This document shows, in pieces, positions 42,052 to 46,119 of a stretch of 61,807 nt of DNA; position 1 is the first letter of the stretch; each line of letters begins with the position of its first letter. The translations under genes were made by a program, and so were the position numbers. The stretch lies in contig JBFYQX010000092.1 of NCBI GenBank assembly GCA_041302525.1, positions 1-61,807 of the forward strand, in the 5' to 3' direction. Under the pieces are notes generated by a model that saw only the letters and a list, made by a program, of their open reading frames with translations, was not told the origin of the DNA and made no database searches. Source of the DNA: Candidatus Bipolaricaulota bacterium (GTDB lineage: Bacteria; Bipolaricaulota; Bipolaricaulia; UBA7950; UBA9294).

Positions 42052-45000
42052 CTAGCGCTCGAAGTCAATCGCCACCGTCATCTCGAGGACCAGCCCGTGG
42101 TAGGGTGGCACCGCCGTGCGCATGCCCCCGCGGTACGTGGCCCCGAGCGACAGGCTCCATGTGGGAGAGAGCCGCAGGTCGGCCGTCAGGCCCGCGCGCC
42201 AGGTCGCATCGTCCTTGTCGTTCTGTCGCCGCCACTCCCCGCCCGCGTCGCTGCGCAGCAGGACCGTGGGCACGAACCCCGCGGCCTCCACGGCCGAGGG
42301 TCGTCGCGTCGTCGACGCAGCCGGCGCCGACTCCACATCCCGTGGTGACTCGGCGTCGACGACGTCGGCAGTCGGCTCGGCCTCACTAGGCGCGCGCGCC
42401 GGTGCATCGTCGTTCTCGCCGCGCGCTGCCATCCAGCCGCGCACCAGCGCGGTGATGTCTCGCGAGTATGAGTTCGTCACGCTGAGGTTGGCTGCGCCGC
42501 TTGCCTCGAGCCGCGCCGTGGCGGCCAAGGTCTCCGAGGTTCCGTCAGGGCCGGACCACGACACACGCCCCGTCAGCGTGTGCGTCGTCTTTGCCTTCGA
42601 TCCCTGGCCCTCGACCTGCGTCACGGTGCGCGTTGCGTTGTAGTTCAGGGACGGTCGCAGATCGGCGATCCCCGAGTACGTGAACGACGACGTCAGCCGC
42701 TCCGTCCATCGCACCACGCGCGATCCGATGCCCGACACGTCCACGGAAGCGGTCGCGCGTGCCGTCATGTCGGGGCCGTTGAGGCGCGCCCCGAGACGGC
42801 CCGAGACGGCACTCACGCGGTCCTCGTGCTCGCCTTCGAGGTCCAACGTCGGGGCGAGCGACCACTCCCCGGACGCGATCGGATCGATCGTGAACGAGAG
42901 CGTCGCCGCGTGACTCAACGCCACGTCCCCGCCCGGCAACGCCCGCCCTCCGGTGAGGTCGTAGCCCGCAGCAATTCCCAACGAGCCGGCGTCGAACGCG
43001 CCGTCGGTCGTCCACGTCAGCCGGTCGCTGCCCGACGCCGAAGCGCCGACGATCCGCACGGGGCGGCGCCAGGTCCAGCTCGTCTCAACGCCCGGCAGGA
43101 TGTCGAGCGAAGCCCGCGTCGAGAGCGTCGTGTCCCGGCGCGGCGCAAGCGACTCGCTCCAGGACACCCTCTCGTCCCATCCGATCGACAGCTCCAAGGC
43201 CTTCTCGAAGAACGAGTGATCGATCCCCACGTTGTAGGCCACAGCGCTCCGCTCGTATCCCGGCCGCGCCGCGTTGTCCTCGACCGTGTAGTCGATGGCG
43301 AACGTCAGCTTCGGCCCCATCGTGGTGCGGAACGTGAGCCCCTGCTCAGCGAGGGTTCTGGCGTCCACCGACCCGACGTGCGACATCCGCACCTCGTGGG
43401 TGAAGGAAAGCGAGCTTGTCGCCCCAAGATCGAGGTCCGACGCGAACGTCCAGCCGCCGTCGTTCGAGCGACTCCGCGCGTCGATGGCGCGGAATCCGGG
43501 CAGCGTTCGGTTGACGCTTGCTGCGACCGAGTACCCGTCTCCCTGGTGCGAGAACGACCCGCGCGCCATCCAGCCGGTCGTCGTGTGCTCGTCGGCCGGC
43601 GCGTCGGTGTACACGCGCGGGTTCCACGGATCGATGCCCGTCGTCGCCGCATCGTAGACTGCCTCGCCCGCAGAGAGACGACCGACGAGCAGCTCGCCCT
43701 CGCCGGTGCCGCTCGTCCCAACCCAGAGCCGGTCGGCCTCTGCGCCAAGCGCAGTGACCTGCCAGCCGTCAAAGAACCGTGCGCCGTCTGCCACGCGCGC
43801 GACGCCATCGCCGGCCGCGTAGTAGACGTGATCGCCCGCCGCCTCGACCGCTGGGACGGCCTCCCCGCGGATCACCCACTCCGTCTCCGCGCCAGCGACC
43901 ACGGTGCGCAGGCCCTCCGCGCCGGCTGCGTAGAGCACGTCGCCGTGGACAGCGAGGTCCCAGACAGCCGTGGCGGAACCGACCCGCTCCGCCGTCCGCG
44001 TGGCAGGATCAAGGCGGACAAGGCCTTCGGACGTTCCGACGTACAGGGCGCCGGCCGCCACGGCGAGCGCCCGGACCCCGAGCAACGCGGCGTCTTCGTA
44101 CGACGTCCACGCGTCCGGGTCGGCAACGGCCGCCGTGGGGACAGCAGACAGCCCCGCATCGGTGCCGATCCACAGGGTGTCGCCGTCGAGGGCGAGGGCG
44201 CGGATCGAATCCTCGAGAAGGCCCTGGCGCTCGCCGTAGCGCGACCAGTTTGCCACCTTGTCAAGCGGCGACACGCCGACCAGGCGCACGATCGTCAGCC
44301 CGCCCTCGGTGCCGAGGTAGACGGCGGACTCATCCAGAGCCACCGCCCGCACCTCGCGGCCGCTCAGACCGGACTGCGACCCGTACGCCTCCCAGGCGCC
44401 GGCGCCGAACACGCTGAAGCCCGTGTCGGTGCCGACGACGACGCGTCCGGCGCCTGCCGCCACGGCCCGGACCTCGTTGGGCGTGCGCACGCGCCCGTTG
44501 TCGTCATAGGGGAAGAGATCGTCGGTGTAGCCAATGTCGACGCTCGCCGAGAGATCCGGACGCGTCCATCGGCCACTGACGCCGACGACGGTCTGTCGAT
44601 TGGGCATGGTCTTGACGCTGTCGGAGTTCTCCACTGAGCCCGTGTCGTCCGACGCCCGCAGCGCGTACCCCGTGAACGACCATTCGGACCCCACGGGGAG
44701 GCTGATCGTGCCGCCGTAGAAAGTCCGTGCGTAGGCACCCGCGCCGCCCGGCCCGCTGTAGCGCTCGAACTCCACGATCAGCGCCTCGTCGGGGCCGATG
44801 TCGACAAGCAGCGCGAGCATTCCGAACTCATAGTCGAGCGTGTAGTCGGTATCGCGGACGAGGGATCGGCCGGCGAGGACCACCCGTTCGCTTCCCGGGA
44901 TGACGGACGCGCCGAGGAAGTAGATGCCGCCAACCACTTTGTAGGCGAACTGGACGCGCAGCGCAGCGTCTGGATCCGCGAAGAAGCTCTCGGGGAAGCT

Positions 45001-46119
45001 CACGTCGAGCAACCCCTCCGCGGCGCGCACCCGGAAGGAGTAGTCGCTGAGCCGTGGGTCGTCGGTCGAGACGTACTCGCCATCGCGGCGAACCTCAACG
45101 CGCACCGTCTCGGGCTCGACGCGTTCCTGACCAAGATCGAAGAATCGACGGAAGCGTAGTTCGCCGAGCGACCGCGCCTCGGATCCGACGCGGAGCGCAG
45201 TCCGCGCCACGAGCGCGGCGAGGAAGTCCTGCTCCACGCCGCTTCCGCTGACGAATGGGTACGTCAGCGCCTCGCCCGAACCGGTCGCGTTGTAGACGCG
45301 GAGCGCCTCGCGTAGGGTCTCGCGCACCGCCTGCGTGGGCTCGACCCGCAGGATGAGCGACTGCGTGTCGCTCCCCGACTCGCCCTCGCCGACCACGAGT
45401 GCCTCGTGGCTGTCCACGAGCCGTCCATCGAACGCAGACAGGGTCTTGATCAGATCGGCGACACCGAACTGCGTCATGATGGCGCTCGCCTCGCCGGGTT
45501 CGAGGTCGAGACGGATCTCGGTGAAGCCCTCCGCGTACAACTCCTTGAGGTCCACGTAGCCGAAGCCCCGTAGGCTGGTCGCGTACGAGACGCCCTCATC
45601 GCCCGACGCCCCGGCGAACACCTCCTCGCCGAACGCCAGCTCGCCGACAAACTGCCGCGACGCGCGGGTGCCGGATACCTGGGAGACGATCGCCAACGCC
45701 GAGCCCTGATCCCACAATGCGTCAACGCGCGCCCCTATCATCGTCCGGCTGCCGGCAAAGAACCCGCCCAGGCTGGGCGCGGTGAAGTCGCCGAGGACGC
45801 CCTGGACGTGCTCGGTGTCCAAGTACAGGGACAACGACTGCATGTCAGTCGGCTCCTGATCATCGAAGTGGCCTACGACGCGGAAGATGTCGAGCGCCGT
45901 CGCCGTGAAGTCGACGCGCAGCGTCTGATCAAGCTCGAACTGGCCTGCGCCGATCGACGCGCCGGCCAGGGCCAGAGGGTCGCCCAGTCCGAACCGCACC
46001 GTCCACGTCTTGCGTCCGTCGAGGTCCACGTTCAGGGAGTCCGTTTGCGTCGCCTGCTGCGCCCAACCGAGCGACCCCATCACGATGACCCACAGCGCCA
46101 GGATCACGCACGTCCTCAT
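42052..46119 (-). CDS. Large exported SprA/Sov-like beta-barrel protein with internal beta-propeller
   Basis: Signal peptide; FFDLG and LGASVIPGSERVVLAGRSLVRDTDYTLDYEFG (SprA-type motifs); WIGTDAGL/LYVGT.EGL repeats; long C-terminal run of amphipathic strands ending VAIDFER. Confidence 0.7.
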   Translation of the reverse strand: MRTCVILALWVIVMGSLGWAQQATQTDSLNVDLDGRKTWTVRFGLGDPLALAGASIGAGQFELDQTLRVDFTATALDIFRVVGHFDDQEPTDMQSLSLYLDTEHVQGVLGDFTAPSLGGFFAGSRTMIGARVDALWDQGSALAIVSQVSGTRASRQFVGELAFGEEVFAGASGDEGVSYATSLRGFGYVDLKELYAEGFTEIRLDLEPGEASAIMTQFGVADLIKTLSAFDGRLVDSHEALVVGEGESGSDTQSLILRVEPTQAVRETLREALRVYNATGSGEALTYPFVSGSGVEQDFLAALVARTALRVGSEARSLGELRFRRFFDLGQERVEPETVRVEVRRDGEYVSTDDPRLSDYSFRVRAAEGLLDVSFPESFFADPDAALRVQFAYKVVGGIYFLGASVIPGSERVVLAGRSLVRDTDYTLDYEFGMLALLVDIGPDEALIVEFERYSGPGGAGAYARTFYGGTISLPVGSEWSFTGYALRASDDTGSVENSDSVKTMPNRQTVVGVSGRWTRPDLSASVDIGYTDDLFPYDDNGRVRTPNEVRAVAAGAGRVVVGTDTGFSVFGAGAWEAYGSQSGLSGREVRAVALDESAVYLGTEGGLTIVRLVGVSPLDKVANWSRYGERQGLLEDSIRALALDGDTLWIGTDAGLSAVPTAAVADPDAWTSYEDAALLGVRALAVAAGALYVGTSEGLVRLDPATRTAERVGSATAVWDLAVHGDVLYAAGAEGLRTVVAGAETEWVIRGEAVPAVEAAGDHVYYAAGDGVARVADGARFFDGWQVTALGAEADRLWVGTSGTGEGELLVGRLSAGEAVYDAATTGIDPWNPRVYTDAPADEHTTTGWMARGSFSHQGDGYSVAASVNRTLPGFRAIDARSRSNDGGWTFASDLDLGATSSLSFTHEVRMSHVGSVDARTLAEQGLTFRTTMGPKLTFAIDYTVEDNAARPGYERSAVAYNVGIDHSFFEKALELSIGWDERVSWSESLAPRRDTTLSTRASLDILPGVETSWTWRRPVRIVGASASGSDRLTWTTDGAFDAGSLGIAAGYDLTGGRALPGGDVALSHAATLSFTIDPIASGEWSLAPTLDLEGEHEDRVSAVSGRLGARLNGPDMTARATASVDVSGIGSRVVRWTERLTSSFTYSGIADLRPSLNYNATRTVTQVEGQGSKAKTTHTLTGRVSWSGPDGTSETLAATARLEASGAANLSVTNSYSRDITALVRGWMAARGENDDAPARAPSEAEPTADVVDAESPRDVESAPAASTTRRPSAVEAAGFVPTVLLRSDAGGEWRRQNDKDDATWRAGLTADLRLSPTWSLSLGATYRGGMRTAVPPYHGLVLEMTVAIDFER

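Follow-up and report, generated by a model that had tools for sequence, protein, structure and literature searches.

A predicted SprA-like giant barrel with a mid-chain beta-propeller, probable translocon of a compact type 9-like secretion module in a Bipolaricaulota bacterium

The reverse strand of the window (the whole stretch of DNA that was analysed, 61,807 nucleotides) carries a gene whose product combines sequence motifs of the type 9 secretion translocon SprA with the repeats of a sensor-type beta-propeller. This raises the question whether a protein of such composition can be a SprA-type barrel at all, and, if so, what the propeller does in it. The original prediction regarded it as a smaller translocon whose propeller might be a built-in plug or a cargo dock. 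We think that the gene product is probably the outer-membrane translocon in a compact type 9-like secretion module. [quoted passage not shown]

The reading frame and its sequence relationships

The frame runs from ATG to stop, and its GC content per codon position (0.68/0.53/0.87) is coding-like for a window of 70% GC. The features of the gene and of the encoded protein are as follows.

42052..46119, (-): SprA-like gene, candidate translocon, 1,355 aa, ATG to stop
46057..46119, (-): Sec-type signal peptide read from the translation, aa 1-21, MRTCVILALWVIVMGSLGWAQ followed by QATQ
45613..46035, (-): predicted barrel strands 1-9, aa 29-169 (DSSP of the AF2 model, pLDDT mostly >85)
44731..45612, (-): predicted folded insert 1, aa 170-463, after strand 9 (secondary structure of the model)
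44560..44934, (-): segment with SprA homology, aa 396-520 (hhalign, profile search, TIGR04189)
44515..44730, (-): predicted barrel strands 10-13, aa 464-535, followed by an FPYDDN neck
43651..44484, (-): Reg_prop beta-propeller of seven blades, aa 546-823, between strands 13 and 14
42058..43584, (-): predicted barrel strands 14-38, aa 846-1354, ending in ...TVAIDF-ER
42268..42456, (-): aa 1222-1284, linking strands 34 and 35, predicted amphipathic helix and disordered loop, acidic and rich in Pro

The signal peptide is presumably cleaved before QATQ. All motifs quoted in the original prediction were found in the translation, namely the N-terminal SprA-type motifs FFDLG (aa 326-330), LGASVIPGSERV (aa 402-413) and RTFYG (aa 465-469), and the propeller motifs VYLGTEGGL (aa 600-608), LWIGTDAGL (aa 649-657), LYVGTSEGL (aa 692-700) and LWVGT (aa 798-802). 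That the SprA-type motifs go beyond chance could be shown with three kinds of comparison. The NCBIfam model TIGR04189 (SprA/Sov) matches aa 390-439 with an E-value of 2.9e-5, the matched part of the profile being positions 588-637, and 28 of 30 family members match the same model one by one at E 0.01 or better (best E 8.9e-9). These scores of 21-23 bits (21.4-23.1) extend over ~50 aa only and lie below the curated cutoff of 200 bits, and PF14349 (SprA_N) gave no match in the protein even at E up to 10. A family profile compared with the PDB found residues 697-795 of Flavobacterium johnsoniae SprA (6H3I_A, E 2.1e-5), and hhalign aligned aa 396-520 to residues 696-820 of a 2,216-aa PF14349 protein with a probability of 94% (E 1.3e-7; 118 columns, 33% identity). 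At the sequence level, homology to SprA is detectable and it is local only, being confined to aa 396-520.

The propeller repeats in the middle of the protein are also real. The family profile matches the sensor propellers 3OTT/3VA6 of hybrid two-component systems (HTCS) with an E-value of 6.7e-17, seven blade motifs are found at aa 560, 600, 649, 692, 728, 765 and 798, and the single-sequence score of 19.6 bits for Pfam PF07494 is just under the cutoff of 20.4. Judged from its repeats, aa 546-823 is a seven-blade Reg_prop propeller. A survey of homologue architectures, as called for in the original prediction, places this insert of ~280 aa at the same site in 33 of 34 full-length genome loci and in nearly all of ~60 full-length cluster representatives. 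The mean pairwise identity is 41% in the propeller vs 33% in the C-terminal barrel, and the FPYDDN neck that follows strand 13 is invariant.

The barrel model and the placement of the propeller

An AF2 run on the propeller-deleted sequence, with an alignment of 69 sequences, resulted in a model with a pLDDT of 89.3 and a pTM of 0.73 in which about 38 long strands form a meander, or 36 if two short pairs are discounted; SprA has 36. The ~500 C-terminal amino acids, originally described as alternating amphipathic strands, are modelled with high confidence as 25 long antiparallel strands, and the last strand (...TVAIDF-ER, with an invariant F1353) resembles a beta-signal. In a Foldseek search of the PDB, ranks 1-4 are all SprA (8GL6_A, 8GL8_A, 6H3I_A, 6H3J_A), with E-values from 3.4e-16 (8GL6_A, TMq 0.49) to 1.1e-8 and TMq values of 0.47-0.49, whereas the next match has an E-value of 1e-6 and every non-SprA match a TMq of <=0.29; this fold match partly reflects size alone, because SprA is the sole PDB barrel this large. 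Both checks favour the original reading of a SprA-type giant barrel with a mid-chain beta-propeller. With high confidence, the protein is predicted to fold as a single chain into a giant barrel with about 36-38 strands, and SprA is the sole PDB structure that matches it closely.

A barrel of this size could also be a general channel or a component of the toga, such as a porin, a SlpA/OmpM-like anchor or a pore for peptide uptake associated with a surface protease. Lower Foldseek matches indeed comprise the 30-strand Deinococcus SlpA (E 5e-6) as well as TonB-dependent and usher barrels, and the gene is kept across the phylum amid the housekeeping genes for LeuRS, PGM and MetRS. However, SprA is ahead of all other Foldseek matches by ~ten orders of magnitude in E-value, the local sequence homology is specific to SprA, a Pfam scan of the protein detected no SLH or OmpM-type domain, and the conserved coupling to a PorV-like protein and to a protein tagged with a C-terminal sorting domain (CTD) is a transport signature of the T9SS, so that we consider a channel without export function very unlikely.

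With respect to size, the "smaller translocon" of the original prediction has to be divided into its two meanings. The chain is far shorter than that of canonical SprA, with 1,355 aa vs about 2,200-2,400 aa, because the inserted domains are smaller. The barrel itself is not smaller; with ~36-38 strands vs 36 in SprA it would be of full size.

Two folded domains are inserted between the strands of the model. Insert 1 follows strand 9 and is modelled as an alpha/beta subdomain plus a beta-sandwich that bears the SprA-type motif, and the propeller follows strand 13 of 38. As both preceding strands are odd-numbered, both inserts would be extracellular, given periplasmic N- and C-termini. Counting back from the C-terminal beta-signal strand likewise assigns the propeller and the termini to opposite faces, and strands 14-22 have their longer loops on the face of the propeller. 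From the model it is therefore predicted that the two inserts (aa 170-463 and aa 546-823) lie outside the cell and form a cap closing the barrel. The helix and loop of aa 1222-1284 are placed on the periplasmic side by the same parity. Conservation is lowest in this segment (20% identity), its long disordered part is lineage-specific, and the pLDDT drops below 50 at residues 940-979 of the modelled chimera.

The placement of the propeller bears directly on its supposed function as a built-in plug. A seven-blade propeller is ~45-50 Å across and might in principle block part of a wide pore, and the AF2 model behind the placement was made with the propeller-deleted sequence. It is nevertheless improbable that the propeller sits in the lumen or at the periplasmic entrance to gate a smaller barrel, as the position after strand 13 and the longer loops on the same face point to the outside and the strand count is not below that of SprA. 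In SprA, the periplasmic entrance is shut by the separate Plug protein, whereas the extracellular end is shut by folded inserts between the strands (PMC10202324). The plug function is thus probably wrong. The second suggestion, a cargo dock, is possible by analogy, because the CTD in F. johnsoniae also touches the SprA cap (PMC10994853).

The protease and carrier genes and the conservation of the module

The SprA-like gene is the last one in a tightly packed operon, in which two pairs of an S8 subtilase with a CTD and a PorV-like barrel lie upstream and in which start and stop codons overlap or abut, as seen from the junction sequences.

50181..52439, (-): S8 subtilase a, 752 aa by longest ORF, Peptidase_S8 E 3e-46
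50184..50450, (-): CTD of subtilase a, ~89 aa, T9SS type-A-like
49327..50184, (-): PorV-like barrel 2, 285 aa, ATG overlapping the stop of subtilase a (CTATGA)
47110..49326, (-): S8 subtilase b, 738 aa, Peptidase_S8 E 1.3e-44
47113..47379, (-): CTD-like domain of subtilase b, E 6e-31 with a local HMM made from the CTD alignment
46116..47087, (-): PorV-like barrel 1, 323 aa from GTG, with GGAGG before the start

The start of subtilase b abuts the stop of PorV-like barrel 2 with no gap (TAGATG), and the stop of PorV-like barrel 1 shares bases with the ATG at the start of the SprA-like gene (ATGA). Subtilase a shows the D/H/S catalytic motifs in its translation, and its signal peptide starts at ~aa 52 of the longest ORF. 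Other genomes have a single protease, to which subtilase a is the closer copy (69% identity to that of locus L001, vs 61% for subtilase b); subtilase b is a second, more divergent copy. The CTD is located at the extreme C-terminus of the protease in every case and has the conserved pattern NPV...LRIY...GLYLYV...G(R/K)LVI. As an isolated domain, that of subtilase a reaches 22.9 bits with TIGR04183 (Por_Secre_tail), for which the cutoff is 23, and 27 of 27 orthologous CTDs match this model at E 0.01 or better (best E 3.4e-7). The CTD of subtilase b ends with IAPLVVAP and does not have the conserved G-R/K of the family.

The two PorV-like proteins share 41% identity. Both are under the cutoff of 90 bits for the PorV/PorQ model NF033709, with 23.8 and 36.6 bits in the window and E-values of 3e-5 for barrel 1 and 3.8e-9 for barrel 2; a local PorV-like HMM matches barrel 1 with an E-value of 1.2e-92, and 26 of 26 neighbouring PorV-like proteins match the PorV/PorQ family model (best E 2.8e-17). 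The AF2 model of barrel 2 (pLDDT 91.5, pTM 0.87) has 14 strands that come after a helical segment at the N-terminus, and its first Foldseek match is PorV (8GL6_F, E 1.8e-9, TMq 0.80), with 6H3I_F next and then FadL, TbuX and TodX. With these barrels and the CTD-bearing proteases immediately upstream, the SprA-type reading gains support from the operon, and we regard this gene context as the strongest argument for it. Genes for PorL/M, PorK/N, PorU/Z/Q, SprE and Plug were looked for in the 61.8-kb window and none was found; a T9SS requires an energy source for carrier release.

In MAGs of Candidatus Bipolaricaulota / Acetothermia, 50 loci of the SprA-like family were found, and the host phylum here is Bipolaricaulota, whereas the original prediction had compared the protein with that of Bacteroidota. 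In 40 of the 50 genome loci the order is protease, PorV-like gene and SprA-like gene, and the coupling of a PorV-type carrier with a CTD substrate is seen as gene context only, in 40/50 loci. Of the ten exceptions, six end at a contig edge upstream of the gene. The PorV-like gene is retained in another two (L041, L043), and the last two (L047, L048) are the remotest relatives. A distant relative of 1,621 aa has the same context with a different protease, a 1,488-aa S8-PKD-CTD protein. Bipolaricaulota are described as having a toga-like outer membrane and as lacking LPS genes (PMC6092417; bioRxiv 10.1101/2025.11.21.689855).

This distribution also bears on the source of the module. Single genome-scan matches carry the labels Neomarinimicrobiota, which is an FCB phylum, and Atribacteria, and proteins of the PorV/PorQ family are annotated in several phyla, as might be seen if an ordinary T9SS had recently been acquired from an FCB bacterium or if the contig were a mis-binned FCB one. 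Against this, the same LeuRS-PGM / MetRS synteny is found in ~40 Bipolaricaulota species, and the identity of the module proteins (30-60%) tracks that of the housekeeping neighbours, which together indicate a long vertical inheritance. The divergence from canonical SprA is moreover extreme, with only ~120 alignable residues, and the architecture is fixed and distinct among the family members. We therefore give a recent transfer or a binning error very little credence.

We propose subtilase a as secreted cargo. Alternatively, the subtilase could be a surface processing peptidase that serves CTD cargos encoded elsewhere, as an analogue of PorU, which carries a CTD itself and remains bound to PorV. 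In ~40 genomes the module always includes the protease gene, the best PDB match of the CTD is that of PorU (6ZA2 residues 1057-1138, E 1e-6), 20 of 27 CTDs match the PorU and PorZ models and resemble these as much as generic ones, and one locus (L052) encodes, further upstream, another CTD protein that is not a protease. However, the protease and PorV-like genes were duplicated jointly, which fits a pair of cargo and carrier, and a single extracellular protease is reported for the closed genome of Ran1 (PMC6092417). A search with the family CTD HMM found no further CTD ORFs in the window and ~0.8 Mb of Bipolaricaulota flanks, which is weak evidence because the latter is the same locus repeated. 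We regard it as unlikely that the subtilase is a processing peptidase rather than the main cargo, and a PorU-like role would not exclude that the protease is also cargo.

If subtilase export by the SprA-like barrel resembles that in F. johnsoniae, the subtilase would cross the inner membrane via Sec, and its CTD would enter the periplasmic mouth of the barrel, where the PorV-like carrier, docked at a lateral opening, and the lower face of the cap would bind it; cargo and carrier would then exit sideways together. The cargo might subsequently be freed, or its cognate PorV-like barrel might keep it anchored on the LPS-free toga, and the two cargo-carrier pairs in the window would serve one translocon. 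As the loops of the PorV-like proteins are all short, the propeller may supply part of a CTD-binding roof.

Comparison with known systems

The protein shares with SprA/Sov (6H3I/6H3J/8GL6; TIGR04189; PF14349) the giant single-chain barrel (about 36-38 vs 36 strands), the folded inserts between strands, whose extracellular position is here predicted from parity, a homologous segment (IPGSE...L.RD.DY.IDYE.G) at a comparable relative position, and the coupling of the gene to a PorV-type barrel and a putative CTD-tagged cargo. It differs in its 1,355 aa vs about 2,200-2,400 aa, its scores far under the curated thresholds, its LPS-less Bipolaricaulota host, which is not an FCB bacterium, and the genes for motor, ring and attachment complex, none of which is seen nearby in the 61.8-kb window. 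The predicted cap consists of one alpha/beta-plus-sandwich insert and the Reg_prop propeller, and to our knowledge no propeller occurs in canonical SprA.

The PorV-like proteins resemble PorV/PorQ/PorP-SprF (NF033709, PF19572, PF11751) in being 14-strand barrels of the FadL type whose N-terminal segment bears G.GG...DD....NPA. Carrier genes adjoin cargo genes in known systems, with type-B CTD cargo next to PorP/SprF-like genes or PorZ next to PorQ (PMC10202324), and here too the cognate carrier gene adjoins the cargo gene. Unlike PorV, the mature proteins have ~260 aa instead of about 370-400 aa, score under the family cutoffs, and have predicted extracellular loops of <=10 residues throughout, lacking the long loops that in F. 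johnsoniae enclose the CTD within SprA.

The CTDs are like type-A CTDs (TIGR04183; PorU, PorZ, RgpB) in their about 80-90 aa at the extreme C-terminus and in the elements N-P, hydrophobic-Y-D/T-x-x-G, G-L-Y-L-Y-V and a basic residue in G(R/K)LVI. In contrast to these, they score at or just under the cutoff, copy b is without the basic residue, there is no A-LPS for attachment, and a PorU sortase was not seen in the window.

The propeller, finally, agrees with the Reg_prop propellers of HTCS sensors (PF07494; 3OTT, 3VA6, 4A2L; B. thetaiotaomicron BT4663/BT3049-type) in its seven blades and in the repeat signature hydrophobic-W/Y-hydrophobic-G-T-x-x-G-L. It differs from them as a single propeller without Y_Y_Y domain and kinase, and it would be located in a loop of an outer-membrane barrel and not in a periplasmic sensor domain.

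The translocon candidate and its relation to SprA

The stretch at 42052-46119 is one minus-strand ORF of 1,355 codons with an ATG start. As spurious ORFs are numerous at the ~70% GC of the window, a mis-called frame was considered, but the coding signature of this ORF (GC 0.68/0.53/0.87 by codon position, with its third-position signal) and its more than 100 homologues argue against this. The motifs quoted in the original prediction, which had proposed a small SprA-type barrel with a mid-chain propeller, were all found (aa 326-330, 402-413, 465-469, 600-608, 649-657, 692-700 and 798-802). 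The protein starts with a typical signal peptide and ends with ...TVAIDF-ER, in which the Phe is invariant in the family, a terminus typical of the final strand in outer-membrane barrels. In many family members (homologues of loci L001-L050) a Gln follows the predicted cleavage site (A/QQATQ, G/QEATQ, A/QEDE, with the slash at the site; window 46050-46060, minus strand), which recalls the "Q-rule" of Bacteroidetes signal peptidase I substrates. Family members that carry any name in a source are annotated only as "hypothetical protein".

Library searches gave weak signals. Pfam returned only a sub-threshold Reg_prop repeat, and NCBIfam a local 21-bit match to the SprA/Sov model TIGR04189 (cutoff 200 bits), which was individually matched by 28 of 30 family members. 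A 19-sequence family profile matched sensor propellers of hybrid two-component systems (HTCS) in the PDB with E 6.7e-17 and residues 697-795 of the Flavobacterium johnsoniae SprA (6H3I) with E 2.1e-5, and in an hhalign comparison, aa 396-520 aligned to a 2,216-aa protein bearing the Pfam domain SprA_N with 94% probability and 33% identity. Since these signals persist at the family level, we regard the sequence homology to SprA as real, although it is local and limited to ~120 residues. A homologue search with the full-length profile mostly found propeller-containing sensor kinases, together with hardly any new family members and one SprA_N protein. The SprA-motif segment at aa ~387-432 (window 44900-45040, minus strand) also weakly matches the phage tail tube model NF052337 in 8 of 30 members (best E 1.7e-6), which may stem from a common beta-sandwich.

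For structure prediction, the window protein without aa 546-823, which form the propeller, was modelled by AF2 with an alignment of 68 full-length homologues, giving a model with pLDDT 89.3 and pTM 0.73.

Predicted elements of the propeller-deleted AF2 model, assigned by DSSP
aa 29-169: strands 1-9
aa 170-463: folded insert 1, alpha/beta and beta-sandwich
aa 464-535: strands 10-13, followed by the propeller site
aa 846-1221: strands 14-34
aa 1222-1284: helix and disordered loop
aa 1285-1354: strands 35-38

The barrel reading, including barrel closure, a lateral opening and the cap geometry, is based on the DSSP strings and Foldseek scores of this propeller-less sequence. In the Foldseek comparison with the PDB, by which the proposed SprA-like barrel could be checked, the four best matches were SprA chains (E 3.4e-16 to 1.1e-8, TMq 0.47-0.49); the next match had E 1e-6, and TMq was at most 0.29 for every non-SprA match. 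To our knowledge, SprA is the sole barrel of such size in the PDB, and the match can therefore partly reflect size alone. Considering also the gene context and the locally homologous sequence, we nevertheless take this resemblance of the predicted model as homology, and we consider it likely that the protein is an outer-membrane translocon.

Of the "mini-SprA" of the original prediction, the SprA-like barrel and its mid-chain propeller are supported, but the small barrel size is not: the model has 38 strands, or 36 without two short pairs, and SprA has 36 (PMC10994853). The protein is shorter than SprA because its inserts are smaller. After a conserved amphipathic helix, the region at aa 1222-1284 (window 42268-42456, minus strand) contains an acidic, Pro-rich disordered loop with pLDDT <50, which should lie on the periplasmic side between strands 34 and 35 of the model; its long form is limited to the window protein and its nearest relatives.

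Age and placement of the propeller

A survey of homologue architectures, as originally suggested, found the ~280-aa propeller at the same position within a common five-part architecture in nearly all of the ~60 full-length representatives. Its mean pairwise identity is 41%, compared to 33% for the C-terminal barrel. As the position is kept and the conservation exceeds that of the C-terminal barrel, the propeller is, judged from these alignments, old and constrained and not a recent insertion.

The C-terminus was taken as periplasmic because the last strand bears the C-terminal signal. Counted back from there in the DSSP topology, the propeller (between strands 13 and 14) and insert 1 (between strands 9 and 10) both fall in connections on the extracellular face, where strands 14-22 also have their longer loops. 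This count is supported by tight SG and GE turns near strand 8. The predicted strand topology thus somewhat favors the propeller as a component of an extracellular cap, and the plug function that had been envisaged for it is probably not realized.

The putative carrier-protease operon and its distribution

Four genes lie directly upstream of the SprA-like gene on the same strand, with start and stop codons that overlap or abut. In operon order, the genes are:

50181-52439, minus strand: S8 subtilase a
49327-50184, minus strand: PorV-like protein 2, ~285 aa
47110-49326, minus strand: S8 subtilase b
46116-47087, minus strand: PorV-like protein 1, ~323 aa
42052-46119, minus strand: SprA-like protein, 1,355 aa

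Both small proteins match the PorV/PorQ family model (E 3.8e-9 for PorV-like protein 2, 3e-5 for PorV-like protein 1), as do all 26 tested orthologues (best E 2.8e-17). The AF2 model of the PorV-like protein (pLDDT 91.5, pTM 0.87) has 14 strands after an N-terminal helical segment, and its best PDB matches are PorV chains (8GL6_F with TMq 0.80, 6H3I_F with TMq 0.76), with FadL, TbuX and TodX ranking lower. The C-terminal ~89 aa of both subtilases follow the pattern NPV...LRIY...GLYLYV...G(R/K)LVI; the T9SS type-A sorting-domain model was matched by 27 of 27 orthologous subtilase C-termini, and the top PDB match of this C-terminal domain (CTD) is the PorU CTD. By sequence and model, the three defining parts of a T9SS transport core, which are the CTD-tagged cargo, the PorV-type carrier and the SprA-type translocon, are thus encoded together. 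In the CTD of subtilase b (window 47113-47140, minus strand), which ends with ...SSIAPLVVAP, the G-(R/K) kept in nearly all orthologues is missing; the corresponding Lys is near-invariant and functionally important in type-A CTDs of Bacteroidota.

Compared to PorV, the PorV-like protein is ~140 residues shorter, and its predicted extracellular loops all have at most 10 residues. By this prediction, it therefore lacks the loops which surround the CTD in F. johnsoniae. Given these short loops, we speculate that the cap including the propeller could supply more of the CTD-binding surface.

In a scan of one genome per species, 50 loci were found, nearly all in MAGs of Candidatus Bipolaricaulota or Acetothermia, with some labelled "Thermotogae"; the homologues come from outside Bacteroidota. 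When the propeller-less query was searched exhaustively with phmmer, 143 clusters (50% identity) were obtained, of which 81 had E <1e-30. The order LeuRS (minus strand), PGM (minus strand), protease, PorV-like, SprA-like and MetRS recurs across the loci, and local HMMs identified exactly one PorV-like and one CTD gene upstream in 40 of the 50. Among the ten exceptions, six are truncated by a contig end upstream of the gene, L041 and L043 retain the PorV-like gene, and L047 and L048 are the most distant relatives. A recent transfer of the module from FCB bacteria was considered, but the conserved synteny together with the extreme divergence argues against it.

The tandem duplication of the protease-carrier pair (46116-52439, minus strand) occurs only in the window; all 40 other complete loci carry one pair. 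The translocon-adjacent pair (47110-49326 and 46116-47087) is more divergent, with 61% and 44% identity to locus L001, compared to 69% and 54% for the other pair. For a much more distant 1,621-aa relative (locus L052, 1-11316; cluster representative P0119, 67% GC), genes for a CTD protein and a PorV-like protein precede the SprA-like gene, and behind it stands the gene of a 1,488-aa S8 subtilase that carries PKD domains, a CTD and a fervidolysin-like prodomain; by its sequences, this arrangement shows the same logic with a different cargo. No PorV-like neighbor was found beside the distant relatives P0115 (L048), P0143 and P0149, and the P0023 locus stops at a contig end. The representative search also returned dozens of proteins of 850-1,735 aa without Pfam annotation (P0140-P0178), of which P0149 carries a CBM_11 domain. 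Their overlap with the family is limited to the N-terminal strands and insert 1, and they may be further unrecognized SprA-like barrels in other phyla.

Envelope context and comparison with the canonical T9SS

Nothing similar to PorK/L/M/N, PorU/Z/Q or SprE was found elsewhere in the 61.8-kb window, where the remaining genes are housekeeping genes (tRNA synthetases, Obg, RNase G, MutL, DnaX, ABC transport and others). As canonical T9SS genes are scattered across the genome, this says little. A cluster of MoxR AAA ATPase, DUF58, BatA and VWA genes (20205-26360, plus strand) resembles the Bat aerotolerance operon. A 116-aa ORF with coding-like GC3 of 0.86 (41699-42049, plus strand) matches MoaD/SAMP1 ubiquitin-like sulfur-carrier models (E 4.5e-10); it occupies the gap before MetRS, in convergent orientation to the SprA-like gene. 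At 15619-20208 (plus strand), ~3.8 kb lie downstream of a gene for a tyrosine recombinase (Phage_integrase, E 1.3e-33). The long ORFs of these ~3.8 kb, 16254-18203 and 17779-20208, have no Pfam match and do not show the GC3 signature that is usual for coding sequence, and the DNA may be foreign or degraded.

The diderm Bipolaricaulota possess a toga-like outer membrane, and the closed Ran1 genome lacks LPS genes and is reported to contain a single extracellular protease (PMC6092417); in the first isolate, an outer membrane with an S-layer covering the toga was seen (bioRxiv 10.1101/2025.11.21.689855). These reports are consistent with a dedicated route for the export of that protease, and the module provides a concrete candidate with a bearing on amino-acid acquisition by these widespread anaerobes. 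In the absence of A-LPS or a PorU-type sortase, the subtilase might be released, or it might stay bound to its cognate PorV-like barrel, for which PorZ on PorQ and type-B cargo on PorP/SprF-like proteins are precedents (PMC10202324).

We classify the module as a probable compact T9SS transport core with a propeller in its predicted cap, occurring in an unexpected phylum. Reviews confine the T9SS to Bacteroidota and other FCB phyla, with the genes absent elsewhere (PMC11285876, PMC10202324), and our full-text literature searches found no paper that ties T9SS, SprA or PorV to Bipolaricaulota, Acetothermia or Thermotogota, nor any description of an SprA-like protein from beyond the FCB group. The restriction stated in the reviews would be broken by a conserved translocon-carrier-cargo operon in a phylum that branches deeply, lacks LPS and bears a toga, and structural biology would gain a translocon of slightly over half the size of SprA with cargo and carrier encoded alongside. 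In such a simpler system, the role of the cap, CTD recognition, the need of a motor for carrier release and cargo retention without A-LPS would become testable.

In F. johnsoniae, the complex of PorV and substrate needs energy from the motor to leave the translocon (PMC10994853); a paper about periplasmic force transducers contained no information on motors in Bipolaricaulota. A tentative possibility, to which we give rather less than even weight, is that Bipolaricaulota and the distant lineages with 1,500-1,700-aa relatives possess a minimal three-part T9SS of CTD-tagged subtilase, short-looped PorV-like carrier and full-bore, propeller-capped SprA-like barrel, which would operate in an LPS-free toga without a PorKLMN motor and ring or a PorU/Z attachment complex. 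In that case, the translocon-carrier-CTD core would predate the FCB superphylum or be more mobile than it, and would be able to work, or to be energized, in a way that differs from the Bacteroidota machine.
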